From sequence record ON286974: a stretch of 64,000 nt of DNA. One strand, written 5' to 3'. Position numbers and translations under genes: made by a program. Numbering within the stretch: the stretch's first letter is position 1; every line of letters starts with the position of its first letter. The DNA comes from Escherichia phage W115. Positions 12,375 through 58,747 of the stretch are shown one piece after another. The notes under the pieces were generated by a model. That model was not told the origin of the DNA and searched no databases. It was given only the letters and a program-made list of their open reading frames with translations.

Positions 12375-13195
12375 TTAGTCACCTCACCGAAAATTGTAAA
12401 TTGTCTACGATTCTCATCGCCGAAAGATTCTACTACGTCGTTTACCTTGACGCAAGTCCCGCGCGGTAAAATTACTTCACATTCGCAAGGGTTCCATGCA
12501 ATGGACCCAACAACAAAACCTTTATGATCTTTTACATCAATCACCCATGATACATTACAAGAATGTTGCATCTTTCCGGTCACGGATTCATATCGATTCT
12601 CACAATAAAGGCTAGTGCTGTTTGATAGCCAGCCTCCAAAGATGATCGGTGTCATGCTGGTCGATACAAAGTTTTTAAAGGTAAATTCCTTATCTTCAAT
12701 AATACGCTCTATTGTCTGAATGTCAAGATGTTGACCTCGATAAAGAGTACCGTTTAACTTTTCGGTTTTATCCATGACGCAATCCATCAAATCAACAATT
12801 TCTGATATCTCGTCGGTCATGTCCTCTTCCCCTAAGAGAGCACCATTTACCCATTCGTATTGTTCAGACACATAATCACAGATTGCATTATATTCTGCTG
12901 GGGTTATGTTGTTATGTTTGTAATGTTTGAATACATTATCTCCAAAGTCTTCGGAATGTACTTCATACATCACATTAATGATTTTCTTGACAAATCCATA
13001 ATCTTGCGTCTCGCGCTCAAGGAAGCGGATAACCTTCACATAATCATCAAAGTTAATCTGATCGCTGATCATCTCAGTGATCATGTAACCATTAATCCCC
13101 TCAATGTCATATGTTTCGATGTAATTATCCATACGTTCCATCATTGATTCGCGTGATTCTTCTGAAAGACGAAAATCCTGTAATTGTTTGAACAT
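12371..13195 (-). CDS. Alt-family ADP-ribosyltransferase paralog (short form)
   Basis: 274 aa; R-S-E motifs TLYRGQ, FVSTS, ECEVILPRG matching those in the adjacent 683-aa Alt; GGGAGG RBS. Confidence 0.65.
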   Translation of the reverse strand: MFKQLQDFRLSEESRESMMERMDNYIETYDIEGINGYMITEMISDQINFDDYVKVIRFLERETQDYGFVKKIINVMYEVHSEDFGDNVFKHYKHNNITPAEYNAICDYVSEQYEWVNGALLGEEDMTDEISEIVDLMDCVMDKTEKLNGTLYRGQHLDIQTIERIIEDKEFTFKNFVSTSMTPIIFGGWLSNSTSLYCENRYESVTGKMQHSCNVSWVIDVKDHKGFVVGSIAWNPCECEVILPRGTCVKVNDVVESFGDENRRQFTIFGEVTK

Positions 13196-13216
13196 TTTAA
13201 ACCTCCCATATAACAG

Positions 13217-13250
13217 AAAACGGGGCTAGTATAAAACTAGTCCCCGTTTG
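13217..13250 (-). terminator. rho-independent terminator downstream of alt
   Basis: Long hairpin aaacggggctagt-ataaa-actagtccccgttt. Confidence 0.6.
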
Positions 13251-13273
13251 AGTCAACCATTATTTCTTAAAAA

Positions 13274-15392: not shown

Positions 15393-15605
15393 TTATAATG
15401 CACCATCGAGCAATTGCTCTAAGGTGTATCCTGAATAGTCTTTTTCAATCAGGGTATATTTTCCTACTCGTTTAATACAGCCACGCATTTCAACGTATTC
15501 TGCGTAGTTGATGGTGCGAGTTGTTCCATCTTCCAGTAATGCAGTACCGATTTCGTTAATGCGGTCATAAGTTACGTCGGTAATGATGATTTCGATGTTA
15601 GCCAT
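15393..15605 (-). CDS. hypothetical small protein (70 aa)
   Basis: Track ORF with AGGAG RBS and own early promoter. Confidence 0.5.
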   Translation of the reverse strand: MANIEIIITDVTYDRINEIGTALLEDGTTRTINYAEYVEMRGCIKRVGKYTLIEKDYSGYTLEQLLDGAL

Positions 15606-15641
15606 TTGATACTCCTTAGTAGTTCGTTTCGGTATGGGTGT

Positions 15642-15670
15642 ATTATGATATACACCATCTGTTATGTCAA
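15642..15670 (-). promoter_or_regulatory. sigma70-type early promoter (TTGACA-17-CATAAT)
   Basis: Read on minus strand: GTTGACA, 17-nt spacer, CATAAT, upstream A-rich tract. Confidence 0.55.
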
Positions 15671-15676
15671 CAACTT

Positions 15677-15856
15677 TTAGAACATTTTTGAAATTAATTC
15701 TGCTTTGATTTCGCAGAGAACATCTAAAGATTTCTCGTCACCCGCTTTTGCTGCTTCTGCTTGCATTTTTGAAATGGCTTCAATGTCAGTGCAATTATAA
15801 GCCGCTTGAACTTTAGCGATTGCGATGATTGCCGATTCGATGGTTAAGTTTTTCAT
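15677..15856 (-). CDS. hypothetical small protein (59 aa)
   Basis: Unlisted ORF MKNLTIESAIIAIAKVQAAYNC... with GGAGAA RBS downstream of a PeSL promoter. Confidence 0.45.
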   Translation of the reverse strand: MKNLTIESAIIAIAKVQAAYNCTDIEAISKMQAEAAKAGDEKSLDVLCEIKAELISKMF

Positions 15857-15888
15857 GTTTGATTCTCCTTTCGTTTCGGTATGTGTGC

Positions 15889-15918
15889 ATTATAGGGGAT
15901 CACCGATCCCCCTGTCAA
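15889..15918 (-). promoter_or_regulatory. PeSL-type early promoter (stem-loop between -35 and -10)
   Basis: TTGACA then palindrome GGGGATCGGTGATCCCC then TATAAT on the minus strand. Confidence 0.6.
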
Positions 15919-15925
15919 CAATTTT

Positions 15926-16444
15926 TTAGTTATTTTTTAATTGCTCATCTTGCAATAGGGCAATCACATGCTGGCGATGTTCTTCCGATTGAGGCACACC
16001 GAAAAAGTTTGTTTTGTAGAAATACTCTAATCGGTCTTCTCGTGTGCTCTCTTCCATCATGATCGCGGGTAGTCCGAGATTTCGGAAACGTCGCTTTTCT
16101 GCTGGCGTAAAATCACTGTAATACAACATAGAATCATCATTACCAGCAATGCTAAACTCATCCTTCATAAAGGAGAATATTGCGTTTAAACGCTGTTTAC
16201 CGTCCACGATTTCGATCTCATAGCGAGAGCCATCATCAATCTTAGCCATTGCGATAGCACCAACCGGAAAATCATTAATCAGGTTTTCGATAAACATACG
16301 TTTGTTTTCGGTGTCCCATACCAAAGGACGCTGATAATCTGGGTTCATGTTGATATAGCCATCTTCTAACCATGCATCATAAACAGAGATGACAAAGTTT
16401 TTAGTATTGGTATAGTAACGGCGTTTAGGCGTTAAACGGTTCAT
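15926..16444 (-). CDS. DUF262/ParB-like N-terminal domain protein
   Basis: Motifs NPDYQRPLVWD and IVDGKQRL typical of the DUF262 (GmrSD N-terminal / ParB-like) fold; start re-assigned to ATG 16444 with AGGAGA RBS, 1 nt after upstream stop. Confidence 0.5.
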   Translation of the reverse strand: MNRLTPKRRYYTNTKNFVISVYDAWLEDGYINMNPDYQRPLVWDTENKRMFIENLINDFPVGAIAMAKIDDGSRYEIEIVDGKQRLNAIFSFMKDEFSIAGNDDSMLYYSDFTPAEKRRFRNLGLPAIMMEESTREDRLEYFYKTNFFGVPQSEEHRQHVIALLQDEQLKNN

Positions 16445-16445
16445 G

Positions 16446-16778
16446 TTATAGTCTCCTGAATGGATCATCACGTAAATCAATATCTTTTAAGAACTCATCC
16501 CATGAATGGCGGATATTGTTCTTAATTCTCCAGATAAGAGCAGGGATTGAACGCTCTCCCATCTGGAAGTATGGATCATATGATCCGTATGCCCAATATG
16601 CTACTACAATTCCACAATCAGCGCAATAGTATTCTATTTCACTTGCTGGCGACCAAAGTCCATCAATATGATCGGTGATCTTGCTTTCGATGTTATGGCT
16701 ATGACAATCAGGGCAACGGATGCAATGACCTTGTTTATCGTAATTTGACGTTAGCGAATACTTAAACAATCTCATCAT
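16446..16778 (-). CDS. Cys/His-rich zinc-ribbon protein
   Basis: 110 aa with CIRCPDCHSH ... CADCG; ATGA start/stop overlap with upstream gene. Confidence 0.5.
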   Translation of the reverse strand: MMRLFKYSLTSNYDKQGHCIRCPDCHSHNIESKITDHIDGLWSPASEIEYYCADCGIVVAYWAYGSYDPYFQMGERSIPALIWRIKNNIRHSWDEFLKDIDLRDDPFRRL

Positions 16779-17491
16779 AGATCCTTATTGGCTTCAAATA
16801 CTGCCTTTGCGAATCCTCGCGGGGTAAGTGACCTGATAGTCTTTGTTCTGGTTCCTTTCCCGCCTAGCTTAGAATGCTGTTTACTGTACCCTTTATTAAT
16901 CTGCAACGGTTTCTTTTCTGGCATTATAAAGCCTTGTCCGGTCCATAAGCAAGTCTTTTTTGGGTACATATCACGGGCGGCAATATACTCAGGAAACGTA
17001 GGATGTTTATCATCTTCCGGCAAATAACCGCCATATTCCCACGGATGGAACATGTAATCAGGCTTACGCCACATGCTAGAGATAACGCTTACAGGATTCT
17101 CTATCATGTATGGAACTCCTAGCCATTCACCCAAATAAGCGGTTATTTTAGCTGCCCGTACATCATGAACTTGAATCAATGGTCCTTGTTCTCGTTTCTT
17201 TCGTTCAAAGTGCGCAGCGCCACTAACAGCTAAATTGGTGCACGGTGGGAATGCAAAGATAATATCCGGTTTCCCCCATTCAAGGTCCATTGCTCTTTCC
17301 AGCCAGTTCAAATCAATCCAGGTGTTTACATAGGTAATGTTTTGATGTTCAAATCTGGTATTATATTTTTTGTATGTACCGTGGTCGGCGTCATCCGCAT
17401 TAAAGCAGACTACCTTATGACCTGCTTTAGCCCATTCTAGCCCCATTATCCCCGATCCGTCAAAGTTGCAGAATATTAATTTTTGTTTCAT
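16775..17491 (-). CDS. compact cytosine-C5 methyltransferase-like protein (putative)
   Basis: 238 aa; motif I-like FCNFDGSGIMG, ADDADHGTYKKYN, motif IV-like FAFPPC, ENP (ENV-like), C-terminal RSLTPRGFAKA resembling motif IX; no obvious target-recognition domain. Confidence 0.45.
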   Translation of the reverse strand: MKQKLIFCNFDGSGIMGLEWAKAGHKVVCFNADDADHGTYKKYNTRFEHQNITYVNTWIDLNWLERAMDLEWGKPDIIFAFPPCTNLAVSGAAHFERKKREQGPLIQVHDVRAAKITAYLGEWLGVPYMIENPVSVISSMWRKPDYMFHPWEYGGYLPEDDKHPTFPEYIAARDMYPKKTCLWTGQGFIMPEKKPLQINKGYSKQHSKLGGKGTRTKTIRSLTPRGFAKAVFEANKDL

Positions 17492-17733
17492 ATACGCCCC
17501 TTTAATCCAACACAGATTTTAGAAGGTTCTTTGCCGTGCCACATTAAGTAAATTCCGTTAGTACGGCCTTGTTTTGTATATGATTCTTTTCTGATCTTCT
17601 TATAGTGTCGTGCTTCCTCAGCCGATTGTTTAGAATGTCGATCATAAAGGAAGAGGAACAAAGGCCACCCATTAGCGACCTTAATGCAGTTATTCAAAAA
17701 TTCCTTATTTCGTTTAATTAATTTTCTTTTCAC
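17488..17733 (-). CDS. hypothetical basic protein (81 aa)
   Basis: Track ORF; GTG start overlapping upstream stop (GTGA); part of the coupled operon. Confidence 0.4.
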   Translation of the reverse strand: MKRKLIKRNKEFLNNCIKVANGWPLFLFLYDRHSKQSAEEARHYKKIRKESYTKQGRTNGIYLMWHGKEPSKICVGLKGRI

Positions 17734-17981
17734 GCTGCCCCCATTGGTTTGATAGTAACAGAATCTAAAAGACCTTTGTTAGCCAGTTCGCGGCAAGTTT
17801 TCAGATCCGCAACTTCCCAGCCAGCCGCAATCAGGTTATCAATCAGGCTGTTAGCAATTTCTTCGCTCATGAAAGAGCACTGTTTGCCGATGGTGTAGCG
17901 TACACGCTGTAATTTCAGTTTACGGAAGCCTTTAACGTTCAGGTCTTTAGCGATTTTCTTTGCGGTTTCGATGTTAGCCAT
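17730..17981 (-). CDS. hypothetical protein (83 aa), first gene of the coupled operon
   Basis: Track ORF with AGGAGA RBS directly downstream of a PeSL promoter. Confidence 0.5.
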   Translation of the reverse strand: MANIETAKKIAKDLNVKGFRKLKLQRVRYTIGKQCSFMSEEIANSLIDNLIAAGWEVADLKTCRELANKGLLDSVTIKPMGAA

Positions 17982-18021
17982 TGTTTGATTCTCCTAAGTG
18001 GTATCTCGTCTTGATGGTTGT

Positions 18022-18050
18022 ATTGTAGGGGAGTTATCCTCCCCTGTCAA
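18022..18050 (-). promoter_or_regulatory. PeSL-type early promoter
   Basis: TTGACA, palindrome AGGGGAGGATAACTCCCCT, TACAAT on minus strand. Confidence 0.55.
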
Positions 18051-18064
18051 CACTTTTTATAAAA

Positions 18065-18232
18065 TTATTTGTTAATTTCTGGTGCGTTGCTCGGATAGTA
18101 ACCTTCTTTAACACCCAGATATTTTGCAACCATCCCTACAATCTTCTGTGCTACTACAATGTCAAATTTCAGATAATCTTCGCCGTGGGTTTCAATGATA
18201 TATGCTTCACATGCTGCTTTAGTCTCGAACAT
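18065..18232 (-). CDS. hypothetical 55-aa protein, copy 1 of a duplicated gene
   Basis: MFETKAACEAYIIETHGEDYLKFDIVVAQKIVGMVAKYLGVKEGYYPSNAPEINK; near-identical DNA copy at 21852..22019. Confidence 0.5.
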   Translation of the reverse strand: MFETKAACEAYIIETHGEDYLKFDIVVAQKIVGMVAKYLGVKEGYYPSNAPEINK

Positions 18233-18265
18233 TTTGATTCTCCTATTTCGTTTCGGTATGTGTGT

Positions 18266-18295
18266 AGTATAGGGGATCTCCCGATCCCCGTCAAC
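18266..18295 (-). promoter_or_regulatory. PeSL-type early promoter
   Basis: TTGACG, palindrome GGGGATCGGGAGATCCCC, TATACT. Confidence 0.5.
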
Positions 18296-18308
18296 AACTT
18301 TTTTAAAA

Positions 18309-18590
18309 TTATTCGTGATTAGTTTCGATGTTATACATTTTGCACCAGTTCAGCCAATCACCCAGATCCTGATAGTTGATGCTTTTATCTGCTGCCATCG
18401 TTTTTGTCTTGATACCCATATGTGCGTTATGAGTAAGCATTTTTACAGTGAACTCAATTTTATCGCCTTTAGCTTTAACATCAACCAGTTTGGTCCACTG
18501 GCTACCAGCGCCGCGAATGTTCATACCAACGATGTTTCCGATGTATGCTTCTTTGTTTTTCAGGATTTCGGTTGCTTTGATGAATTTCAT
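18309..18590 (-). CDS. hypothetical protein (93 aa)
   Basis: Track ORF with GGAGAA RBS and upstream PeSL promoter. Confidence 0.5.
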   Translation of the reverse strand: MKFIKATEILKNKEAYIGNIVGMNIRGAGSQWTKLVDVKAKGDKIEFTVKMLTHNAHMGIKTKTMAADKSINYQDLGDWLNWCKMYNIETNHE

Positions 18591-18663
18591 TTTTGATTCT
18601 CCAGTTCGTTTCGGTATGGGTGTATTATGCTATGTTCTTACTTTGGTGTCAACAACTTTTTTT

Positions 18664-18933
18664 TTAGATATTTTCAGAAATAAATTTTAAAACTTGACGT
18701 AAATGTTTCTCATCTTTGATAGTTGCCGGAAGTTCTTCTTTTACTTCCTGTGCAAGATAGATATTTCCGTTCCAAGTGAAAGATCCGTCTTCGTTTACTC
18801 GATAGCTGAACATCCACTCGCAATCATTTTCGATTTCATATACACACAGAAGGGTGTAATCGTTAAAGCTATTGATTTCAATGTCGAAGCCGTGACGTTT
18901 TGCAAAGTTGGTAGTGGTTTTAGTCAGTGCCAT
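18664..18933 (-). CDS. hypothetical protein (89 aa)
   Basis: Track ORF with AGGAGAA RBS and upstream promoter cassette. Confidence 0.5.
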   Translation of the reverse strand: MALTKTTTNFAKRHGFDIEINSFNDYTLLCVYEIENDCEWMFSYRVNEDGSFTWNGNIYLAQEVKEELPATIKDEKHLRQVLKFISENI

Positions 18934-19024
18934 TGTTTGATTCTCCTAAGTGGTATCTCGTTTCGATGTGTGTATTATGCTATGGGCGTGATCTGGTGTC
19001 AACAACTTTTTTAAATTTTTGGAA

Positions 19025-19050
19025 ATAAAAAGCCGACACTAAGGTCGGCA
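19025..19050 (-). terminator. rho-independent terminator (gccgac-actaag-gtcggc family)
   Basis: Hairpin plus U-run on minus transcript; same hairpin recurs at 19529-19554. Confidence 0.55.
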
Positions 19051-19053
19051 CAT

Positions 19054-19308
19054 TTAAAAATTCTTGCTATATATGCAAGCCTCATAATCTAGAGGATGAC
19101 CGCCAATCCTACCAGGCTTAATATTCCAACCGCATCGATATTTGCTGACCATGCTAACCGTTTCGGTTCTTAGAGCATTTCTTTGCAAATCATACCCCCT
19201 AAATTCTTGTCTATAAGGACAGTCCGCTTTGCAAGTTGGTGGTTCTACGTCATTTAGCGGGTCAGAAGCAGTTGGCTTTATTATCAATTCTTTGTTTGCA
19301 ATAATCAT
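19054..19308 (-). CDS. hypothetical Cys-rich protein (84 aa)
   Basis: Start re-assigned to ATG 19308 (MIIANKELI...); four Cys. Confidence 0.4.
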   Translation of the reverse strand: MIIANKELIIKPTASDPLNDVEPPTCKADCPYRQEFRGYDLQRNALRTETVSMVSKYRCGWNIKPGRIGGHPLDYEACIYSKNF

Positions 19309-19441
19309 AAGCACATCCCATTGAAGACAATTTAACATCTTCGCAATAAGTGTTGAATCCGTCAAATACAATCACTTCGTATTTGACTCCATCGGCGATA
19401 GCTTTTACTTTATACCATCCATGCTTGTATAAAATCTTCAT
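19262..19441 (-). CDS. hypothetical Cys-containing protein (59 aa)
   Basis: Start re-assigned to ATG 19441 after GAGGGAAA RBS; overlaps next gene. Confidence 0.4.
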   Translation of the reverse strand: MKILYKHGWYKVKAIADGVKYEVIVFDGFNTYCEDVKLSSMGCAYDYCKQRIDNKANCF

Positions 19442-19528
19442 CTTTATTTCCCTCAATCTCGTTTCGATGTGTGTATTATGCTATAGGCTAGACCAGGTTG
19501 TCAACAACTTTTTTAAAATTTTATGCAA

Positions 19529-19554
19529 TAAAAAAGCCGACACTAAGGTCGGCT
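19529..19554 (-). terminator. rho-independent terminator (second copy of gccgac-actaag-gtcggc hairpin)
   Basis: Identical stem to 19032-19049 with U-run. Confidence 0.55.
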
Positions 19555-19561
19555 AATAAAA

Positions 19562-19870
19562 TCATTTAGACAAATAATCTTTCAGTGCAATCCGGTCGGC
19601 ATGTTCCGGCGTTACGTCAATCGCAATCACTTTAACTCGTGCTTTCTTGCGACCTGGGTTTTCTCGTAACCAGTGCTCATGACCGTGAACATTTTTATAC
19701 TGCGATGCTTCTTCGAAGGTACGGATCGGACCTGGGTAATCAGCGTAAAGGATCTCTAGATCTTCGGTGATGTAAAAATATACATCGTAATTGCTGTTCT
19801 CTAGTTTAAGCAGAGACTTTCGGAACATTGGGAGATTTTCGCGGGTAAATTCAAAGATATTATCTTTCAT
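19562..19870 (-). CDS. HxHW/VIAVDV small-protein family member A
   Basis: 102 aa; YFYITEDLEILYADY ... HGHEHW ... VIAIDV. Confidence 0.5.
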   Translation of the reverse strand: MKDNIFEFTRENLPMFRKSLLKLENSNYDVYFYITEDLEILYADYPGPIRTFEEASQYKNVHGHEHWLRENPGRKKARVKVIAIDVTPEHADRIALKDYLSK

Positions 19871-19894
19871 AGTATTATCCTCAATAGTTGGATG

Positions 19895-19916
19895 AAAAGG
19901 GGGGCTTAACGCCCCG
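19895..19916 (-). terminator. rho-independent terminator (ggggc-ttaac-gcccc family)
   Basis: Same hairpin core as 15372-15386. Confidence 0.45.
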
Positions 19917-19920
19917 TATA

Positions 19921-20208
19921 TTAAAACAGTCCTTCCTGTACACCGTAGTAGAGTTCATCGCTGATAATTTCATTAATGCGACGGTGTGCATATTCCTGAT
20001 TTGCGAAGTTATCAGCAAGTTCTACTTTAGTTTCTCCGTCATGAGTCCATTTAGTGATAACTTTACCATCTGCAAATTTGAAGTTGAACTCTTTAGCTAC
20101 TGCATCGCGTACCAGACGTGCGAACTTGTTATTACGGATTGCATTATCGGTTTCGTGTGCAGCGTGAGCGAATTTGTTAACTTTCAGAGTGATAGTAATG
20201 TATGCCAT
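19921..20208 (-). CDS. hypothetical protein (95 aa), paralog of 23218..23529
   Basis: Shares RLVRDAVAKEFNFK / REVRKALAKEFNTK segment with the 23218 gene. Confidence 0.5.
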   Translation of the reverse strand: MAYITITLKVNKFAHAAHETDNAIRNNKFARLVRDAVAKEFNFKFADGKVITKWTHDGETKVELADNFANQEYAHRRINEIISDELYYGVQEGLF

Positions 20209-20289
20209 AATTTGATTCTCCTAGTTAGAAAGTGTATCTCGTTTCGATGGGTGTATTATGCTATACACCCTCTCGCGTGTCAACACTTT

Positions 20290-20568
20290 TTATAAAATAA
20301 TTTTTTGATATTTTTCTATGATGTTTGTGTAATCCACATCAACCGCTATCACCGTTGCTTCGAATCCACCGTTTAGCCAATGGCTATGGTCATGATCGTG
20401 AAAGAAACCAAGACCAGTACGAAGACCTTCTTTATATTCGGCGCGTACATTTAGATCATCATCGATAAACAGATAAAACCATGAATTTTTACTAGGATTG
20501 ATGATACAACCTTTCAGATTAGGGAGAATATCACGACTAAGAATAAACTTATCACCTACTTTGAACAT
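20290..20568 (-). CDS. HxHW/VIAVDV small-protein family member B
   Basis: FYLFIDDDLNV ... HDHDHSHW ... VIAVDV; start re-assigned to ATG 20568 (GAGGA RBS). Confidence 0.5.
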   Translation of the reverse strand: MFKVGDKFILSRDILPNLKGCIINPSKNSWFYLFIDDDLNVRAEYKEGLRTGLGFFHDHDHSHWLNGGFEATVIAVDVDYTNIIEKYQKIIL

Positions 20569-20572
20569 AATA

Positions 20573-20893
20573 TTAGTCCTCATTTATAAGGTCAAACCAA
20601 TTGTTTTTCGCATAATGCTTAATGCGTGCTTGATCTGCTTCCGCTGGTGATAGATTCCATGCAACCACTACAACTTCTGACGCATCGTCATCCGTTTCTG
20701 ATACCCAATGATTGTGATTCATACAGTTATTTGCGATCGAGTGAGCAAATGATTTCATCACTGGAGACGTATAATCATAGTAACGGATTTTCAGATTTTC
20801 ATCAACGTACAAATAGATCGTATAAGGTTTATATTCAGTAACCAGTAACAGACAGTTACGCAATTCTGGGAAAATCTTTTTAGTTAATTTCAT
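20573..20893 (-). CDS. HxHW/VIAVDV small-protein family member C (divergent)
   Basis: IYLYVDENLKI ... NHNHW ... VVVVAW; start re-assigned to ATG 20893. Confidence 0.45.
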   Translation of the reverse strand: MKLTKKIFPELRNCLLLVTEYKPYTIYLYVDENLKIRYYDYTSPVMKSFAHSIANNCMNHNHWVSETDDDASEVVVVAWNLSPAEADQARIKHYAKNNWFDLINED

Positions 20894-20894
20894 T

Positions 20895-21113
20895 TTATAA
20901 TCCTCGGTCGCGGCTATAGTACACGGTACGCCATACAATTTCATGTTTCGTGTCGCTCCAGCACACGATCTCATTTACTCTTAAATCTTTGTTATCAACA
21001 AAAGATGAACATTGTGACGCTTCTTTCATCATTTTATCTGCTGTTTTCTCATCAAATACAGCACAGATTTCTTTATACACTCGATAATCTTTGAATTGAC
21101 TCTGAATACCCAT
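20895..21113 (-). CDS. hypothetical protein, paralog of 21073..21336
   Basis: Shared pattern KxYxxIxxV...AxKMMxxASxCxSF with the next gene; start re-assigned to internal ATG. Confidence 0.4.
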   Translation of the reverse strand: MGIQSQFKDYRVYKEICAVFDEKTADKMMKEASQCSSFVDNKDLRVNEIVCWSDTKHEIVWRTVYYSRDRGL

Positions 21114-21336
21114 AATTAACACCATTCCAACCAATTGTTTTTGAGAAAACGTTTATCCACTGTTGAGTGTAACATGTTTCTTTCCATGATACAATACGAG
21201 TAGAATAATGGTTTTTGTTTCCAGAAAAGGACGGGCATTTTGATGCATCTTCCATCATCTTTTCGGCGAACTCTGGTGCGTATACTCGCAGGATCTGTTG
21301 ATATGCTTTGTATTCTTTAAATTTGCTCATAATCAT
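21073..21336 (-). CDS. hypothetical protein, paralog of 20895..21113
   Basis: 87 aa; same motif pattern. Confidence 0.4.
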   Translation of the reverse strand: MIMSKFKEYKAYQQILRVYAPEFAEKMMEDASKCPSFSGNKNHYSTRIVSWKETCYTQQWINVFSKTIGWNGVNYGYSESIQRLSSV

Positions 21337-21595
21337 TCACTACCTTATCAGCTTCTTTTGTTGTTTTTACATCAACTGCGATAACTCGTAAAGGTTCGTC
21401 ATGGTTCCACCAGTGGTCATGAATATCAGCTTGTGATTTATCACCAAAGGAATCACGAATATCATTTTTACATTTATAGCTAATGTGACCTTCATAGTCA
21501 ACATAAAGGTAATTATCGAAAATCGGCGTTTTTAAGATCATACCGAAAAATCTTTCTTTGTGTGTCTTATCCAGCGTTGCAGTAATTCGCATCAT
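21317..21595 (-). CDS. HxHW/VIAVDV small-protein family member D
   Basis: YLYVDYEGHISY ... HDHWW ... VIAVDV. Confidence 0.5.
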   Translation of the reverse strand: MMRITATLDKTHKERFFGMILKTPIFDNYLYVDYEGHISYKCKNDIRDSFGDKSQADIHDHWWNHDEPLRVIAVDVKTTKEADKVVNDYEQI

Positions 21596-21607
21596 AATAT
21601 ATTCCTC

Positions 21608-21787
21608 TTAGAAAGGGATGGTCATTTCTTGAGCTTGTACATTCTCGTTAGGATTAAACTTCATCCAGCCGATATTGTCTACCAGCATATGCACATTTTT
21701 ATCATATCCTACGTGAGTAGTCAACACTAAATGTGCTTTATCTTCAATGATGAGTTCCATGTACTTCTGAACTTCGATAGCTTTCAT
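21608..21787 (-). CDS. hypothetical small protein (59 aa)
   Basis: Unlisted ORF MKAIEVQKYMELIIEDKAHLVLTTHVGYDKNVHMLVDNIGW... behind a PeSL promoter. Confidence 0.4.
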   Translation of the reverse strand: MKAIEVQKYMELIIEDKAHLVLTTHVGYDKNVHMLVDNIGWMKFNPNENVQAQEMTIPF

Positions 21788-21851
21788 TTTGATTCTCCGT
21801 TTGTTGTCTTGATGGGAGTATCTTACTACTCCCTTTAATCATTGTCAACTA

Positions 21852-22019
21852 TTATTTGTTAATTTCTGGTGCGTTGCTCGGATAGTAACCTTCTTTAACA
21901 CCAAGATATTTTGCAACCATTCCGGTGATCTTCTGTGCTACTACGATATCGAATTTCAGGTAGTCTTCACCGTGGTTTGCTACAATGTACGCTTCGCATT
22001 CTGCTTTAGTCTGGAACAT
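21852..22019 (-). CDS. hypothetical 55-aa protein, copy 2 of duplicated gene
   Basis: MFQTKAECEAYIVANHGEDYLKFDIVVAQKITGMVAKYLGVKEGYYPSNAPEINK; track ORF extends upstream through the promoter. Confidence 0.5.
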   Translation of the reverse strand: MFQTKAECEAYIVANHGEDYLKFDIVVAQKITGMVAKYLGVKEGYYPSNAPEINK

Positions 22020-22053
22020 TTTTGATTCTCCTATATCTCGTTGGTATGTGTGC

Positions 22054-22082
22054 ATTATAGGGGATCGGTGATCCCCTGTCAA
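22054..22082 (-). promoter_or_regulatory. PeSL-type early promoter
   Basis: TTGACA, palindrome GGGGATCACCGATCCCC, TATAAT. Confidence 0.6.
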
Positions 22083-22087
22083 CAACT

Positions 22088-22381
22088 TTATAATGCTTTA
22101 TATGCGTATTTCATAAATTTGTCTGCCACTTCATTGGCATGTTCAGATTCTACGCCTGATTCGAGAACAATAGCTAGGTCGGTTTCGTCATTCCCGCCGT
22201 ACCAATGATTTGATGTTCGATTTTTTTCAATTGGAAATTGGTCACTTTTATCTGTGCGACAAAATACATCTAAATGCTCGTCGATGTAAAAGATCCAATC
22301 TTCATAAAGAATAACGGTATTAGCAAGATTTTTATTGCCTTCAACGAAAGGTTCGGCTACAAACAAATTAGTATGTTCCAT
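22088..22381 (-). CDS. HxHW/VIAVDV small-protein family member E (divergent)
   Basis: IFYIDEHLDVF ... SNHW ... LAIVLE; start re-assigned to ATG 22381. Confidence 0.4.
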   Translation of the reverse strand: MEHTNLFVAEPFVEGNKNLANTVILYEDWIFYIDEHLDVFCRTDKSDQFPIEKNRTSNHWYGGNDETDLAIVLESGVESEHANEVADKFMKYAYKAL

Positions 22382-22397
22382 AGTATTTTCCTCAAAA

Positions 22398-22574
22398 TTA
22401 TACAGCTTCGTAAACTTCCCAATGTCCAACACCAGCACGCTTAACGAAAAGGTTTTCTTTGATGTTATTCATAAACGTCTGGATGGATTTAATGCGGTTT
22501 GAAGGTTTCCATTCTTCGTTTGCATTGCGTCGATACATCATAACATTACCAGTTCGCTTATATTCAGCAACCAT
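22398..22574 (-). CDS. hypothetical small protein (58 aa)
   Basis: Start re-assigned to ATG 22574 after GAGGATAA RBS. Confidence 0.35.
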   Translation of the reverse strand: MVAEYKRTGNVMMYRRNANEEWKPSNRIKSIQTFMNNIKENLFVKRAGVGHWEVYEAV

Positions 22575-22646
22575 TTTAAGACCACACATAATATTATCCT
22601 CAATTTGTGGGAGAGTATTACCCCTCCCAATGATTGTTATGTTATA

Positions 22647-22949
22647 TCACACAAAATGGCGTGTCAATGCTTCTTTTGCGGTTCCGCTAAGATTCTCGAT
22701 CTCTCCTGGCATAACATCAACCGCAAGAACTTCTACAACATCCTCTGATCCTAACCAGTGAGTATGACCTTTGTAGAACTTGATATCCCATTTATCGCTA
22801 TCGCTAGCCCACCACACATCACCGTCGATAAAGTTGATGTAAAGCACACTACGCCACATTGAATTAATTACTTTCAATACTGCGCCTTTCATCTCTTCCA
22901 CGGTGTGGTCTTCCATTTTGAAGACCTCGCCTACCTTAACTTTTGCCAT
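22647..22949 (-). CDS. HxHW/VIAVDV small-protein family member F
   Basis: LYINFIDGDVWW ... GHTHW ... VLAVDV. Confidence 0.5.
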   Translation of the reverse strand: MAKVKVGEVFKMEDHTVEEMKGAVLKVINSMWRSVLYINFIDGDVWWASDSDKWDIKFYKGHTHWLGSEDVVEVLAVDVMPGEIENLSGTAKEALTRHFV

Positions 22950-22966
22950 TTAGTCACCTCTCTTTA

Positions 22967-23146
22967 TTACATAACAATCACGCCAGCCGTTGAAAGTTGA
23001 TGTTTCAACTGAGCATTTTCTGCTACCGTCAAATCAATGATTTCTTGTGACGCTGCAATCATATAGCCATTGGTGATATTGTTTTGCATCAGTTCAATGG
23101 TTTCTTCGTTGTAGCGGATTTTAGCGATGATTTCGTTGAAGTTCAT
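22967..23146 (-). CDS. hypothetical small protein (59 aa)
   Basis: True start MNFNEIIAKIRYNEE...; upstream MLTGDHRSP... of the track ORF is promoter sequence. Confidence 0.4.
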   Translation of the reverse strand: MNFNEIIAKIRYNEETIELMQNNITNGYMIAASQEIIDLTVAENAQLKHQLSTAGVIVM

Positions 23147-23180
23147 AATTGATTCTCCTAGTTCGTTTCGGTATGTGTGT

Positions 23181-23209
23181 AGTATAGGGGATCGGTGATC
23201 CCCTGTCAA
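23181..23209 (-). promoter_or_regulatory. PeSL-type early promoter
   Basis: TTGACA, palindrome GGGGATCACCGATCCCC, TATACT. Confidence 0.55.
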
Positions 23210-23217
23210 CAACTTTT

Positions 23218-23529
23218 TTAAAGTTTTTCCATGATAACGGTCATAATTATATCTTCTGCGCGAGCGGTCAGATTATCAGCGTCAGCATGTGGGCGGTTGG
23301 TTGTTACAGAGATAACACCGTTGCGCACTGGTTTGATGTTGATATCAAGATGATCCGCGAAACGTTCGCCAGTTACAGAATGAATTTTGGTGTTAAATTC
23401 TTTTGCCAGTGCCTTGCGAACTTCACGAATCAGGGTAGCGTTTTTCAGTTGGTTCTCCGCGCTCATGGTCTTCTGGGTGTTCATGGTTCCGTCGAAGTCA
23501 ATCATTGGCAGCGTTACGATGTATTTCAT
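23218..23529 (-). CDS. hypothetical protein (103 aa), paralog of 19921..20208
   Basis: True start MKYIVTLPM...; shared REVRKALAKEFN segment. Confidence 0.45.
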   Translation of the reverse strand: MKYIVTLPMIDFDGTMNTQKTMSAENQLKNATLIREVRKALAKEFNTKIHSVTGERFADHLDINIKPVRNGVISVTTNRPHADADNLTARAEDIIMTVIMEKL

Positions 23530-23615
23530 TTTTGATTCTCCGTTTAAGAAAGTGTGTTTCGTTTTGATGTGTGTAGTATAGGGGATCACCGATCCCCTGT
23601 CAACAACTTTTTGAA

Positions 23616-30997: not shown

Positions 30998-31396
30998 TTA
31001 ACTTTCCAGAATATCGCGAGCTTCGTTACGCTCCTTGATGATTTTCAGGACAAATTCCAGTTTTTCTTTGTTCAGTGTTCCGTTTTCCATTGCTTCTTTG
31101 ACGGTAAACACTCCGCCACCTTGCCCGTATACAGTGACAGTGATTTCACCTAACATCGTGGTATGAAAACCGCCAATTTTCGGTGATTCGAAAGAAACAA
31201 TTACCTCGCGAACAGTATTACCGTCGTTGATTTCTGAGAGGGTAATGTCGTTTTTGTAGGCGGTTGCTTTAACCATACGGATCAGCATAGTCTGATCTGG
31301 GGAGATGGTCATTTTGTCCATTGCATGTTGCAATGCAGCGTAACCGAAAACTTTAACGAAGTCCAGAACATCTTTGCGAGTTTGAAATTTAATCAT
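30998..31396 (-). CDS. hypothetical protein (132 aa)
   Basis: Track ORF with GGAG RBS and upstream PeSL promoter. Confidence 0.5.
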   Translation of the reverse strand: MIKFQTRKDVLDFVKVFGYAALQHAMDKMTISPDQTMLIRMVKATAYKNDITLSEINDGNTVREVIVSFESPKIGGFHTTMLGEITVTVYGQGGGVFTVKEAMENGTLNKEKLEFVLKIIKERNEARDILES

Positions 31397-31466
31397 CTTG
31401 GTACTCCTTAGTTGTTTTGGTGTGGGAGTATCTTACTACTCCCGTGATATGCTGTCAACTGCTTTT

Positions 31467-31616
31467 TTATGCAACCGCAAACATCAACATTTGAACATTC
31501 TTGGCTGTCTGGCTTTCAAAGTTCTGACATTCTTTGATAATGTCCTCTACTTTCTCGCCGGAGATCTCCGCGTAAGTTTCGATTGCCATTTTCAGTACCG
31601 CGTCAAAGTTGTTCAT
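31467..31616 (-). CDS. hypothetical small protein (49 aa)
   Basis: Unlisted ORF MNNFDAVLKMAIETYAEISGEKVEDIIKECQNF... behind a PeSL promoter. Confidence 0.35.
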   Translation of the reverse strand: MNNFDAVLKMAIETYAEISGEKVEDIIKECQNFESQTAKNVQMLMFAVA

Positions 31617-31683
31617 TTGATTCTCCTTAAAGTGTATTTCGTTTCGATGGGGGTATATTACTACCCCCGTTTCATGCTGTCAA

Positions 31684-31902
31684 CTACTTTTTAATGACAA
31701 GTTCGAATTTTGCTACCTTGCGTCCTCGTTTATTGAAAGCAACCCACGGACGGTTTTCAATGTAGAACAATTCTTCACCAATAATGAATACTGGCTGATT
31801 GTAAAGGCGACCCATCAGGTCACGCTGGCGAATGGTAGTAGATTCGTATACTTCGCCTACTACAAAGTGTTTGCTGATAGAGTCGGTGCAAGTAAATTTC
31901 AT
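31684..31902 (-). CDS. hypothetical protein (72 aa)
   Basis: Track ORF with GGAGAA RBS and PeSL promoter. Confidence 0.45.
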   Translation of the reverse strand: MKFTCTDSISKHFVVGEVYESTTIRQRDLMGRLYNQPVFIIGEELFYIENRPWVAFNKRGRKVAKFELVIKK

Positions 31903-31970
31903 TTTGATTCTCCTTTGTTTTCTTGATGGGAGTATCTTACTACCCCCCGTTATTCAGTGTCAACTACTTT

Positions 31971-32189
31971 TTACTTGTTGTATTCATTCCACCACTGGGT
32001 GAGCTTATCAATTATTTTTGTGTTTCTATCCAACTTCTCCCACCGTTTTCTAGGGTTTATCAACCGGAATAGGTAAGGTGTACTTGTTAAGTGAACTCGG
32101 TCAATGTAGTGATTGATGTACTGCTTTTCGATTCTAAGTTTCATCTTTTTACGATGAAAATATGCAATGACTTGTTCTTCTGTTTCCAT
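31971..32189 (-). CDS. hypothetical basic protein (72 aa)
   Basis: Track ORF with GGAGGAA RBS and PeSL promoter. Confidence 0.45.
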   Translation of the reverse strand: METEEQVIAYFHRKKMKLRIEKQYINHYIDRVHLTSTPYLFRLINPRKRWEKLDRNTKIIDKLTQWWNEYNK

Positions 32190-32289
32190 ATGTTCCTCCG
32201 TTTCGATGGGTGCATTATGCTATACCCCGATCCGATTGTCAACACCCAATAACAAAAAAGTCGCCACTATGGGCGACTTTGAACAAACA

Positions 32290-34446: not shown

Positions 34447-34514
34447 AATAAAATACTCACTTGTTTTTGATGGTTGTATTATAGCGGGGATTTCTCCCCG
34501 CGTCAACACTTATT

Positions 34515-39296: not shown

Positions 39297-39343
39297 AATA
39301 TAATCCTCTCTTTGTTTCGATATGTACATTATACACTATTGCG

Positions 39344-40360
39344 TTACGCTGTCAACTCTTTTTCAAAAGTTTTTACGATATACATGATAGTGCTCAATTC
39401 AGACGGCGCGACTGTTTCTGTGTAGCCATCCGGCATATCTTCTTTTGAGATATAGGAAGTTTTACCTTTCATCGCTTCCTTGATCTTGTTCTCTAATTCT
39501 AAGATCTTTTGACCGTCTTGTAAAGTCAATTCATAAAAGATCTCGTGGTCGAATTTAGATTTCGCTGATTGGTTTCTCATTCGTTCTTGTGTTGTTAAAT
39601 TGGTTATTCCAAATTTGATTCCATAAAAACATGATTTTTTAATTAGTTTTTGAATGTATAGTGTTCCGTGTTTTAAAGTGTTGTATCCAAATCTAGCACA
39701 ACTTGAACATCTATTTCCTGATAGAAACCCGTTAATTGTTGGTGTAAATGTATGACCATTACAACATTGCAATTTTAATTTTGTTGTATTTCCTTTCCAT
39801 TCACCTATAAATCCATTGAATAGTATGTTTTCTTTATCAAAGATTGGTTTAATTCTAATAATATAGTCATCTTTGGGTATTGATTTTAATTCTTTCAGTT
39901 TTAACCGGTAGCATTCTTGGCAGCGTCTTCCATTTTTGAAATTGTTAATTGTTGGTGTAAATGTATGTCCATTACAACATTGTAGATTTAATTTTGTCGA
40001 TGACCTTTTCCATTCACCTATAAATCCATTGAATAGTATGTTTTCTTTATCAAAGATTGGAGTTAACTTATGTAGATGTTCATCTTCCGAAAAAGATTTC
40101 ATCCTTCCATTCTTTATGTCTGCACATTTATGACAGCGATTTCCAGCGTTGAAATTGTTAATTGTTATTGTAAATGTATGACCATTACAACATTGCAATT
40201 TTAATTTTGTTGTATTTCCTTTCCATTCACCTATAAATCCAATAAACTTTATATTTTCTTTAAAGAATGTTGGTTTTAATTCTTCGTAGTAATTCACTGG
40301 AGATTTTGAATTGTGAGCTTTTCTAACCCATTCAATCTCATGTGCTTGACGTACTAACAT
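39344..40360 (-). CDS. protein with three tandem Cys-rich repeats (putative Zn-binding), function unknown
   Basis: Three repeats of about 70 aa, FDKENILFNGFIGEWK...TKL.LQCCNGHTFT.TINNF..G.RC..C; start re-assigned to ATG 40360 after GGAGGATAA RBS. Confidence 0.55.
   Translation of the reverse strand: MLVRQAHEIEWVRKAHNSKSPVNYYEELKPTFFKENIKFIGFIGEWKGNTTKLKLQCCNGHTFTITINNFNAGNRCHKCADIKNGRMKSFSEDEHLHKLTPIFDKENILFNGFIGEWKRSSTKLNLQCCNGHTFTPTINNFKNGRRCQECYRLKLKELKSIPKDDYIIRIKPIFDKENILFNGFIGEWKGNTTKLKLQCCNGHTFTPTINGFLSGNRCSSCARFGYNTLKHGTLYIQKLIKKSCFYGIKFGITNLTTQERMRNQSAKSKFDHEIFYELTLQDGQKILELENKIKEAMKGKTSYISKEDMPDGYTETVAPSELSTIMYIVKTFEKELTA
39720..40280. repeat. three tandem DNA repeats of about 210-215 bp inside the Cys-rich repeat gene
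   Basis: Near-identical stretches around 39730-39850, 39945-40060 and 40155-40275. Confidence 0.6.
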
Positions 40361-40443
40361 AATTTTATCCTCCGTTGTTTCTATGGGTGCATTATACATT
40401 ACCACATCAGCATGTCAATACATTTTCATAAAATTTTAGGCAA

Positions 40444-40471
40444 TAAAAAAAGCCTCCCCGAAGGAAGGCTT
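40444..40471 (-). terminator. rho-independent terminator downstream of gene 32
   Basis: Hairpin agcctccc-cgaa-ggaaggct with U-run. Confidence 0.55.
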
Positions 40472-40480
40472 TAAAATTCA

Positions 40481-58173: not shown

Positions 58174-58242
58174 AATATATTCCTCAGTGTTTTGTCTTGA
58201 TGGGAGTATCTTACTACTCCCTTAATCCGGTGTCAACTATTT

Positions 58243-58398: not shown

Positions 58399-58468
58399 TT
58401 TGATTCTCCTTCGTTGTCTTGATGAGTTCATTGTAGGGGATCGCCGATCCCCTGTCAACAACTATTTT

Positions 58469-58681: not shown

Positions 58682-58747
58682 GTGATTCTCCTTTCGTTTC
58701 GGTGTGGGAGTATGTTAATACTCCCATTTCTTTACGTCAACCAGTTT

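Follow-up and report, generated by a model that had tools for sequence, protein, structure and literature searches.

The repeated cassettes in a 64-kb window of Escherichia phage W115 (the whole stretch of DNA analysed, 64,000 nucleotides) are the promoter-early stem-loops (PeSLs) already published for phage RB49 and its relatives, and it is highly probable that they are composite intergenic promoter, hairpin and recombination cassettes of RB49-type T4-like phages. By sequence comparison the phage is an RB49-like Krischvirus, sharing 96-97% nucleotide identity with RB49 and relatives across positions 15600-23650, and RB49 ORF185-212 is the counterpart of 15.4-24.1 kb of the window. PeSLs were first defined in RB49 and phi1 (Arbiol, Comeau, Kutateladze, Adamia and Krisch, 2010, Genome Biol Evol 2:140; PMC2839356), and the cassettes used in the promoter, terminator and mini-circle experiments of that study were taken from this RB49 counterpart. 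The published test elements PeSL206/205, PeSL211/210, ORFan192 and ORFan210 are orthologous to parts of the region: PeSL206/205 reached about 13,000 Miller units as a promoter (lacZ), the PeSL211/210 stem-loop was assayed as a terminator with activity comparable to that of rrnB T1, and ORFan192 and ORFan210 were the subjects of the mini-circle experiments (Arbiol et al., 2010). Mapping of transcript 5' ends at RB49 early promoters reportedly matched the consensus (Nolan et al., 2006, PMC1524935, citing Desplats et al., 2002). All sequence-level defining features of PeSLs are present in the cassettes of the window. Since the window is RB49-like and PeSLs were defined with cassettes of the same region, a PeSL-type early-promoter reading made earlier from the sequence only is supported and already known: a correct rediscovery, not a new element.

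An nhmmer profile built from 12 copies and run over the 64-kb window returned 24 matches (E-values 2.5e-20 to 1.8e-3), all on the minus strand and co-oriented with the genes: 12 in 15591-23615, four in 31389-32245, five in 58163-59772, and single cassettes at 34464-34517, 39304-39367 and 40355-40426 (Table 1). This motif search recovered the three minus-strand blocks where the sequence-only reading had placed them. Its count of more than twenty copies holds for the window as a whole, but only 12 belong to the interval 15642-23610 to which it was attached, and the leftmost cassette of that array extends just beyond the interval, to an ATG at 15605. At least one more PeSL-like element, at 13256 (-), was absent both from that reading and from the profile matches. 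Open reading frames beginning MLTGDHRSP had been taken, rightly, for translations of the cassette itself: those at 21852-22085 (-) and 22967-23212 (-) have as their start a TTG that closely precedes the -35 box, and their codons TTG-TTG-ACA-GGG-GAT-CAC-CGA-TCC-CCT lead in frame into the genuine genes (ATG 22019 and ATG 23146).

Table 1. PeSL cassettes and related elements of the window, with positions on the whole stretch (all on the minus strand).
Element	Position	ATG	Details
PeSL before ORF210 homologue	23517..23615 (-)	23529	-35 TTGACA 23598-23603; spacer stem-loop AGGGGATCggtGATCCCCT; -10 TATACT 23575-23580; orthologue of RB49 PeSL211/210
PeSL before ORF209 homologue	23133..23222 (-)	23146	Spacer stem-loop AGGGGATCaccGATCCCCT; -10 TATACT; gives rise to one artefactual MLTGDHRSP ORF
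Degenerate PeSL-like element before ORF207 homologue	22600..22667 (-)		TTGACA-17-TAACAT; hairpin GGGAGGGgtaataCTCTCCC, one G.T pair, downstream of -10 box
PeSL before ORF205 homologue (cassette 22082)	22005..22093 (-)	22019	Perfect TTGACA-17-TATAAT, spacer stem-loop; identical to RB49 PeSL206/205 but for the 3-nt loop; gives rise to second artefactual MLTGDHRSP ORF
PeSL before ORF204 homologue	21772..21858 (-)	21787	Stem-loop GGGAGTAgtaagaTACTCCC over -10 box TAAGAT
PeSL before ORF198 homologue	20198..20296 (-)	20208	Stem-loop GGGTGTATagcataATACACCC over -10 box CATAAT
PeSL before ORF196 homologue	19431..19554 (-)	19441	No stem inside promoter; T-run terminator hairpin AGCCGACcttagtGTCGGCT at 19535-19554, upstream of A/T tract
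PeSL before ORF194 homologue	18922..19049 (-)	18933	Promoter without internal stem; terminator hairpin GCCGACcttagtGTCGGC and T-run upstream, at 19032-19049
Cassette before ORF193 homologue	18576..18661 (-)	18590	TTGACA-17-CATAAT; conserved leader and ribosome-binding site; stem-loop not convincing
PeSL before ORF191 homologue	18218..18313 (-)	18232	Spacer stem-loop GGGGATCgggaGATCCCC; chimeric junction without RB49 ORF192 (phi1-type); crossover in stop-codon/A+T tract 18309-18313
PeSL before ORF190 homologue	17967..18063 (-)	17981	Spacer stem-loop AGGGGAGgataaCTCCCCT; -10 TACAAT
PeSL before ORF186 homologue	15846..15928 (-)	15856	TTGACA-18-TATAAT; spacer stem-loop GGGGATCggtGATCCCC
PeSL before ORF185 homologue	15591..15683 (-)	15605	Stem-loop GGTGTATatcataATACACC over -10 box CATAAT
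Extra PeSL-like element	13195..13262 (-)	13195	TTGACT-17-TATACT; -10 box covered by bulged hairpin CGGGGACUAGU...ACUAGCCCCG with UUUU after it; GGGAGG further on
Second block, four cassettes	31389..32280 (-)		-35 boxes 31458, 31683, 31963, 32242; three stems over -10 box (GGGAGTA/TACTCCC, compensatory GGGGGTA/TACCCCC, G.T variant); fourth with upstream hairpin AAAGTCGCCcatagtGGCGACTTT
Cassette	34464..34517 (-)		Spacer stem-loop GCGGGGAgaaaTCCCCGC; TTGACG-17-TATAAT; leader and ribosome-binding site diverged
Weak family member	39304..39367 (-)		E = 1.8e-3; TTGACA-16-TATAAT from sequence; no GC-rich stem
Cassette	40355..40475 (-)		TTGACA-16-TATAAT; upstream T-run terminator hairpin AAAGCCTTCCttcgGGGAGGCTTT, one T.G wobble
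Third block, five cassettes	58163..59800 (-)		-35 boxes 58236, 58458, 58740, 59053, 59759; one stem in spacer, two over -10 box, one upstream hairpin, one cassette with none

The common layout is an A/T-rich tract, TTGACA, a spacer of 16-18 nt and a -10 box, followed by a conserved leader and, before the ATG, a GGAG ribosome-binding site; the genes so driven are small ORFs of unknown function. Sigma-70 consensus scores are 10-12 of 12 for the 12 cassettes of 15591-23615. A+T content averages 80% in the 20 nt that precede the -35 box, vs 60% for the window, and in 16 cassettes the upstream gene has its stop codon 0-14 nt away from that box. A stringent promoter pattern has 5 matches vs 0.09 expected. 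The word GGAGAATCAA has exactly 14 copies on the minus strand and none on the plus strand, and with one mismatch allowed there are 19 matches vs 5.6 expected (equalled in 0 of 100 shuffles); CGAAACGA has 11 minus-strand copies and likewise none on the plus strand. Strong perfect GC-rich hairpins number 26 in the window vs 4.1 +/- 2.3 in shuffles, with 16 of them inside the cassettes, which make up 7.6% of the window. Together, the promoter-pattern and word counts and the hairpin excess exclude a chance origin of the cassettes.

The palindrome had been described as lying in the spacer, which holds for eight of the 24 cassettes; in eight others the stem lies over the -10 box, in five it is an upstream T-run terminator hairpin, and in three there is none. 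One palindrome that had been assigned to the spacer, GGGAGTAGTAAGATACTCCC, overlaps the -10 box, with TAAGAT in its loop and 3' arm. Exactly one hairpin is present at 21 of the 24 junctions, the hairpin of the five being of canonical type and just upstream of a promoter that has no stem inside it. No T-run follows the in-promoter stems, which thus do not fit the canonical intrinsic-terminator pattern, as only the upstream hairpins at 19554, 19049 and 19915 do; the terminator role of an internal stem comes from one published reporter experiment on one stem-loop (Arbiol et al., 2010). Stem families differ in sequence (GGGGATC, GGGAGTA, GGGTGTAT, GGGGAG and GCGGGGA), and pairing is preserved by compensatory double changes, both in the second block (Table 1) and in GGGTGTAT/ATACACCC vs GGGGATAT/ATATCCCC. 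Non-Watson-Crick pairs in the stems are G.T in seven cases and A.C in none, the direction that would be expected of a sense-strand RNA structure, with the asymmetry coming mostly from the upstream terminator-type hairpins and standing at only 2-3 to 0, some cases being non-independent, for internal stems.

It is unlikely, though not far-fetched, that the palindromes function chiefly as DNA, either bound by a dimeric regulator or a recombination protein, or extruded as hairpins or cruciforms that nucleases of the phage (gp49 endonuclease VII or the gp46/47 SbcCD-like nuclease) would cut to initiate exchange, with the RNA hairpin incidental. Arbiol et al. (2010) speculated that the GGGG...CCCC motif might be the target of a DNA-binding protein and mapped one mini-circle crossover within the loop, and each GGGGATC...GATCCCC stem holds two Dam GATC sites, with a Dam gene encoded by RB49. 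At orthologous and otherwise identical cassettes, the 3-nt loop also switches between ACC and its reverse complement GGT (ACC here vs GGT in RB49 for PeSL206/205; the PeSL211/210 loop is GGT here vs ACGT). This toggle, a small detail not found in the text of Arbiol et al. (2010), is a DNA-level event inside the palindrome, but short-patch gene conversion between cassettes could equally explain it. No candidate binding protein was identified, and stem mismatches are of the G.T and never the A.C type. Moreover, the stems vary in position relative to the -35 and -10 boxes and in sequence between families, with compensatory changes, which points to selection on pairing and not on a protein recognition sequence.

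Comparison of gene content with eight relatives, as the sequence-only reading had proposed, shows that indel breakpoints cluster at cassettes: 7 of 11 gene gains and losses have both ends in cassettes (null 0.19, P = 1.3e-3, in a test conditioned on gene junctions), and of the other four, three have no cassette boundaries and one has a cassette at a single end. RB49 ORF192 is absent from the window, and the lone cassette in its place (18218-18313) is a chimera of the two that flank ORF192 in RB49. ORF191 and ORF205 are a duplicated promoter-plus-gene module (89% protein identity, about 86% DNA identity including the cassette), and the array holds further paralogues (ORF198/210, ORF201/202 and the ORF197/199/200/203/208 family). 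Several near-identical cassettes, these paralogous genes and three cassettes that work without a stem could suggest duplicated strong early promoters whose stem-loops hitchhike without function, the link to indels arising merely from whole-gene indels that end intergenically. We consider this very unlikely, as compensatory double substitutions keep the stems paired, an upstream terminator replaces a missing internal stem so that nearly every junction has its one hairpin, the indel test already allows for gene junctions, and a PeSL stem-loop lowers downstream expression in a published reporter assay (Arbiol et al., 2010). Selfish, self-spreading miniature repeats (MITE- or REP-like) of secondary promoter likeness would suit the many dispersed copies with an inverted repeat and the published mini-circles holding a single chimeric cassette (Arbiol et al., 2010), but are scarcely credible given that the 24 window copies and all 122 profile matches (window plus scanned RB49-group loci) are co-oriented with transcription, each copy sits exactly between a stop codon and a ribosome-binding site with ATG, the palindrome is internal and not at the repeat ends, the junctions are homologous crossovers, no comparable array was found among the 120 IMG/VR loci listed for the 14-nt upstream/-35 word, and no transposase or integrase is found in the RB49 annotation (about 100 of 164 kb covered), as likewise reported by Arbiol et al. 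(2010).

The cassettes share with the PeSLs of RB49 and phi1 the phage group and locus, the stop codon in an A/T tract, a TTGACA-N17-TATAAT-type promoter, a variably placed G(n)-loop-C(n) stem, a Shine-Dalgarno sequence, the ATG, and ties to ORFans and indels (Arbiol et al., 2010). The arrangement without ORF192 is the one published for phi1, and differences from RB49 are at strain level only, the window being without ORF192 and ORF211. PeSLs and PmSLs of T4/PST and KVP40/nt-1 are also promoter-plus-stem-loop motifs that are concentrated in hyperplastic regions and adjoin indels, but differ in consensus (TTTACW...TAYWAT in T4/PST, TTGYVH...TAWWAT in nt-1/KVP40) and in stems (AGNA-loop-TCNT, A3-4G3-loop-C3T3-4) (Comeau, Arbiol and Krisch, 2014, Genome Biol Evol 6:1611; PMC4122927), whereas here the sigma-70 consensus is near-perfect and the stems are of the G(n)/C(n) kind, as is typical of RB49-type elements. 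Phage morons (Hendrix et al., 2000), as summarized by Arbiol et al. (2010), are similarly single accessory genes with their own promoter and terminator, but in that summary have no conserved repeat at their borders and regulatory parts not thought to mediate mobility; in the present arrays, recombination acts on the regulatory cassette itself. Integron gene cassettes, an analogy drawn by Arbiol et al. (2010), also form arrays of small promoter-dependent ORFs with imperfect palindromic sites between them and exchange through circular intermediates. Unlike integrons, the present arrays lack both an integrase and attC/attI sites, every unit has its own promoter, and exchange appears to be general homologous recombination.

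The mechanism that we propose takes promoter strength, terminator activity and mini-circles from the literature, and anatomy, strand bias, hairpin enrichment, compensatory changes, orthology and breakpoint clustering from the present analysis. Each cassette lies between two small early genes, with the upstream stop codon in an A-rich, UP-element-like tract, and its near-consensus sigma-70 promoter (TTGACA, 16-18 nt, TATAAT/TATACT/CATAAT) would be read by unmodified host RNA polymerase right upon infection. Transcripts would start a few bases beyond the -10 box with a short conserved A/C-rich leader (ACACAUACCGAAACGA...), at the end of which a strong GGAG ribosome-binding site precedes the ATG by 7-10 nt. 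The single hairpin of a junction, whether in the spacer, over the -10 box or as an upstream T-run terminator, would form the 3' end of the upstream message, attenuate or terminate read-through and probably protect that 3' end. By limiting read-through, it would keep each ORFan transcriptionally insulated. The cassettes may also enhance translation. Because the cassettes of about 90 nt are near-identical and co-oriented, the efficient homologous recombination of the phage could produce crossovers between them, with modules exchanged via circular intermediates (Arbiol et al., 2010), and these crossovers would delete, duplicate or insert whole promoter-plus-gene modules.

In the minus strand of 15500-23700, a repeated intergenic unit is readable directly, in the order A-rich tract, (G)TTGACA, spacer of 17-18 nt, -10 box (TATAAT, TATACT, CATAAT, TACAAT or TAAGAT), leader ACAC(A/C)CAT(A)CCGAAACGA..., GGAGAATCAA and ATG. 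The motif-profile search that the sequence-only reading had proposed was run with nhmmer, using 12 copies of this cassette from 15591-23615, and recovered 24 cassettes in the 64-kb window (E-values 2.5e-20 to 1.8e-3), 24 of 24 on the minus strand and in the same blocks that the reading had listed (see table). The pattern is real and highly non-random. A stringent promoter pattern has 5 matches against 0.09 expected, GGAGAATCAA has 14 exact matches on the minus strand and 0 on the plus strand (19 with one mismatch, against 5.6 expected), and strong perfect GC-rich hairpins number 26 against 4.1 +/- 2.3 in shuffles, with 16 of the 26 falling within cassettes, which make up 7.6% of the window sequence. 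These counts rule out a chance origin, and low-complexity sequence and transposon-like explanations were both rejected. A generic promoter scan yields 30 sites in total against 25.2 expected, only the top-scoring sites standing apart from chance.

No cassette was found by the profile in 44-57 kb, which corresponds to the RB49 tail-fibre genes. An Rfam search of the whole window at gathering threshold returned no match, so the leader and stems are not a curated RNA family. IMG/VR viral contigs searched with the 14-nt word AAAAGTTGTTGACA gave 120 loci, nearly all single-match, the word being too unspecific; the profile applied to these 120 loci gave isolated weak matches only (best E = 1.9e-5) and no arrays.

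The 12 cassettes of 15591-23615 match the sigma-70 consensus at 10-12 of 12 positions with 17-18 nt spacers, and the remaining 12 have TTGAC(A/G/T) with spacers of 16-18 nt. The 20 nt preceding the -35 box average 80% A+T, compared with 60% in the whole window. In 16 cassettes the upstream gene has its stop codon 0-14 nt from the -35 box; where a hairpin intervenes, the distance is 47-62 nt. A GGAG, GAGG or AGGA-type site is placed 6-10 nt ahead of the ATG in 23 of 24 cassettes, and the ORFs opened by those 23 ATGs encode 49-338 aa. ORFs beginning MLTGDHRSP had been explained as translations of the cassette itself, and this is borne out by ORFs 21852-22085(-) and 22967-23212(-), which start from a TTG slightly upstream of the -35 box and continue in frame across the cassette into true genes. 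The warning for annotators is that called ORFs run on into the cassette and so acquire spurious "MLTGDHRSP" N-termini.

At 21 of 24 junctions exactly one hairpin lies between the stop codon of the preceding gene and the start of transcription for the next, and representative cassettes have fold z-scores of -2.0 to -3.8. A palindrome in the promoter spacer had been described as a general property of the cassette; this holds for 8 of 24, while in 8 the stem overlaps the -10 box, in 5 a hairpin lies upstream and 3 are without one (cassettes are named in the table by the position of the -35 box). The stem GGGAGTAGTAAGATACTCCC belongs to the -10-overlapping class and holds the -10 box TAAGAT in its loop. 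At least one further PeSL-like element exists: 13195-13262(-) lies outside the listed blocks and is absent from both the earlier list and the profile matches; the profile missed it because its leader differs.

Other promoter-like and start signals occur in the window. Near-consensus sigma-70 promoter-like sites without the conserved leader or stem-loop are found at 41513, 42833, 42969 and 43875 (-), those at 41513 and 43875 reading TTGACA-16-TATAAT; these may be plain early promoters, some of them perhaps intragenic. Recurring ahead of intra-operon genes is a second translation-start motif, (A)TTGAGGA(T/A)AATA(C/T)TATG (19871-19920, 22382-22400 and 22590-22625), which sometimes has a GC hairpin before it (19901-19915; about 22604-22623).

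Cassettes, hairpins, repeated genes and gene presence/absence events in the window
Feature	Position in window	Strand	Detail
First block	15591-23615	-	12 cassettes (nhmmer)
Second block	31389-32245	-	4 cassettes (nhmmer)
Single cassettes	34.5, 39.3, 40.4 kb	-	One each (nhmmer)
Third block	58163-59772	-	5 cassettes (nhmmer)
Stem in spacer	-35 at 23603, 23209, 22082, 18294, 18050, 15918, 58458, 34506	-	n=8
Stem over -10 box	-35 at 21848, 20283, 15670, 58740, 58236, 31963, 31683, 31458	-	n=8
Upstream canonical T-run terminator hairpin, no internal stem	-35 at 19504, 19002, 59759, 32242, 40418	-	n=5
No convincing hairpin	-35 at 18652, 59053, 39355	-	n=3
Extra PeSL-like element	13195-13262	-	TTGACT-17-TATACT (at 13256); bulged hairpin over -10, then UUUU, GGGAGG, ATG
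Degenerate PeSL-like element	22600-22667		Stem downstream of -10 box
Stems with loop ACC	22059-22077, 23186-23204
Stems with loop GGT	23580-23598, 15895-15911
Stems with two GATC sites	15895-15911, 18272-18289, 22059-22077, 23186-23204, 23580-23598, 58435-58453
ORF197/199/200/203/208 family	19562-19870, 20290-20568, 20573-20893, 21317-21595, 22647-22949
ORF201/202 paralogue pair	20895-21113 / 21073-21330
ORF198/210 pair	19921-20208 / 23218-23529		Both match phrog_7474
Events cassette-bounded at both ends			ORF192, ORF191, ORF210, ORF186, ORF186-190 block, ORF195/196, 2.8-kb block missing in FL04
Event with one end in cassette			ORF211 (present in RB49, absent from window)
Events not cassette-bounded			ORF189.1, ORF207, extra ORF in UPWr_E1

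Promoter-early stem-loops (PeSLs) were defined in phages RB49 and phi1, with about 51 in RB49 and 52 in phi1, concentrated in hyperplastic regions (Arbiol et al., 2010; PMC2839356), and the concept was later extended to T4/PST and KVP40/nt-1 (Comeau et al., 2014; PMC4122927). In lacZ fusions, PeSL206/205 (the element between RB49 ORF206 and ORF205) has high promoter activity, about 13,000 Miller units, and the stem-loop of PeSL211/210 has terminator-like activity comparable with rrnB T1 (PMC2839356). That 5'-end mapping agrees with the RB49 early consensus is relayed second-hand by Nolan et al. (2006; PMC1524935), from Desplats et al. (2002). No later functional work on PeSLs was found in the literature searched.

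Over its full length, window 15600-23650 has 96-97% identity to Escherichia phages vB_Eco_SAP, TB34, MIZ6 and RB49; 63 records match it, and all relatives whose records were examined are Krischvirus. It matches RB49 ORF185-212, a stretch between alt and the HNH endonuclease/DNA ligase genes in which nearly all genes are annotated hypothetical. At its aligned positions cassette 22005-22093 differs from RB49 PeSL206/205 in the 3-nt loop only, and cassette 23517-23615 equals PeSL211/210 from A/T tract through ATG except the loop and one adjoining stem pair. The window elements are thus orthologous in sequence to published RB49 elements, and they carry every part of a PeSL (promoter, A/T tract with stop codon, stem-loop, and Shine-Dalgarno with ATG), in agreement with the earlier proposal of PeSL-type early promoters. 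Scanning about 100 kb of RB49 (outside 50-114 kb) gave 33 cassettes, a number not directly comparable with the published 51. What is seen here is therefore the PeSL system as already published, in an RB49-group phage and at the type locus of the system.

As expected of PeSLs, which favour hyperplastic regions and positions immediately upstream of ORFans, the cassettes gather in three blocks of small ORFs that are hypothetical in RB49 and seven relatives. Ten cassette-driven ORFs have PHROGs matches only to families of unknown function, and Pfam searches of ten region ORFs gave two matches only, GmrSD_N in the homologue of RB49 ORF187 and a weak zinc ribbon beside it, both in genes inside an operon and not directly behind a cassette. 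The products of that operon, 15926-17491(-), are a GmrSD_N (DUF262)-only protein of 172 aa, a zinc-ribbon protein and a DNA methyltransferase that is called a C-5 cytosine methylase in the annotation of relatives. MIZ4 lacks the operon together with the rest of a larger PeSL-bounded block (window 15689-17966), and the operon may be a cargo module serving anti-restriction or self-protection. The PeSL array is separated from the DNA ligase gene by an HNH endonuclease gene (RB49p212 homologue, 23616-24092(-)); RB49 ORF211, called an integron-ORF homologue in the literature, sits directly after the HNH gene and is absent from the window. Repeated genes include a five-member paralogue family (ORF197, 199, 200, 203 and 208 homologues) with the common motif H-W...V(I/L)A(V/I)DV, and two pairs (see table).

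Modular gene shuffling had been ascribed to the cassettes, with comparison to related phages proposed as a check. Window 14.8-24.8 kb was aligned to the homologous region of eight relatives (RB49, UPWr_E1, JK32, MIZ4, Brandy, Makalu, FL04 and MIZ6), revealing 11 distinct presence/absence events. In 7 of 11 both ends fall inside cassettes, the one cassette of the shorter genome aligning to the two flanking cassettes of the longer. With cassettes at 12 of 27 gene junctions, 19% of whole-gene indels ending at random junctions would be cassette-bounded on both sides; the observed 7 of 11 has P = 1.3e-3, a rough value since events were hand-counted and the FL04 alignment is messy. The comparison favours the shuffling claim, and 7/11 agrees with the published 10/14. 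In UPWr_E1 the breakpoints of the ORF207 indel fall at two copies of the second translation-start motif, not at PeSLs.

The junctions include chimeric cassettes. RB49 ORF192 is absent from the window, where a single cassette, 18218-18313, has the ORF193 3' end from RB49 PeSL193/192 and, from the A/T tract onward, equals RB49 PeSL192/191. The chimeric junction is placed at nucleotide level at 18309-18313, and this mixed origin puts the crossover in the stop-codon/A+T tract, as in the published phi1 model; phi1 likewise has a single chimeric PeSL in place of RB49 ORFan192 (PMC2839356). Circular "mini-circles" carrying ORF192 and ORF210 of RB49/phi1 are supported by inverse-PCR evidence and attributed to recombination between flanking PeSLs (PMC2839356); the ORF210 module is present in the window between cassettes 23603 and 23209 and lacking in UPWr_E1, JK32 and Brandy. 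Protein identity between the paralogous ORF191 and ORF205 homologues is 89%, and their DNA identity, about 86%, reaches into the upstream cassette (18065-18307 and 21852-22093). By this comparison they amount to a module of promoter plus gene that has been duplicated inside the array; 4 of 8 relatives lack the ORF191 copy.

Selection on the stems most likely acts on pairing in the sense-strand transcript rather than on a fixed protein-recognition sequence, as argued by their variable position, compensatory changes and G.T-only mismatches. Stem position varies relative to the promoter boxes, and an upstream terminator substitutes where the internal stem is absent. Stem sequences vary among families, yet pairing is kept by compensatory double changes (GGGAGTA/TACTCCC and GGGGGTA/TACCCCC; GGGTGTAT/ATACACCC and GGGGATAT/ATATCCCC); these are explicit examples, the stem families being in different registers with only 4-5 distinct rows per register. 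Among 42 unique hairpins (from the window, the loci of the eight relatives and a further stretch of about 90 kb of RB49), the non-Watson-Crick oppositions comprise 7 G.T and 0 A.C (nominal two-sided P = 0.016, or about 0.06 with independent events only). Most wobbles are in upstream terminator-type hairpins, and stems within the promoter alone give an underpowered 2-3 against 0. In-promoter stems have no T-run and do not match the intrinsic-terminator pattern, so that their "terminator" role derives from one published reporter assay; they could instead serve attenuation, factor-dependent termination or 3'-end protection.

Cassettes with the stem GGGGATC-NNN-GATCCCC have the loop ACC or GGT, exact reverse complements of one another, at orthologous positions. 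Ahead of ORF205, the window and MIZ4 have ACC, and RB49 (L001, 7540-7650), MIZ6, Brandy and UPWr_E1 have GGT; ahead of ORF209, seven genomes have ACC and JK32 has GGT. This toggling affects two orthologous cassettes across nine genomes of near-identical phages, with all flanking positions identical, and a text search of Arbiol et al. (2010; PMC2839356) did not find it. It may represent either loop inversion or short-patch conversion between cassettes, which the identical flanks of the cassettes make indistinguishable here. Each such stem also brings two Dam GATC sites into the promoter spacer, and RB49 encodes a Dam methyltransferase (RB49p063); it is conceivable from these sites that methylation state is linked to promoter or hairpin behaviour. 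Besides a role as RNA attenuators, the stems may repeatedly undergo hairpin events at the DNA level, a reading that we consider improbable. If the flips were true loop inversions (by cruciform or template-switch), the palindromes would extrude in vivo and could then provide an initiating lesion for shuffling or a methylation-sensitive promoter switch.

The significance of PeSLs as a concrete mechanism for the modular evolution of large lytic phages was established in 2010-2014. To this the window adds breakpoints again concentrated at cassettes, in another RB49-group genome compared with eight more recently deposited relatives, and its remaining value lies in independent breakpoint statistics, the warning on N-terminal extensions and the loop-toggling observation. 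In these phages, conserved regulatory cassettes double as expression signals and recombination linkers, so that accessory genes are gained, lost and duplicated without disrupting their neighbours.
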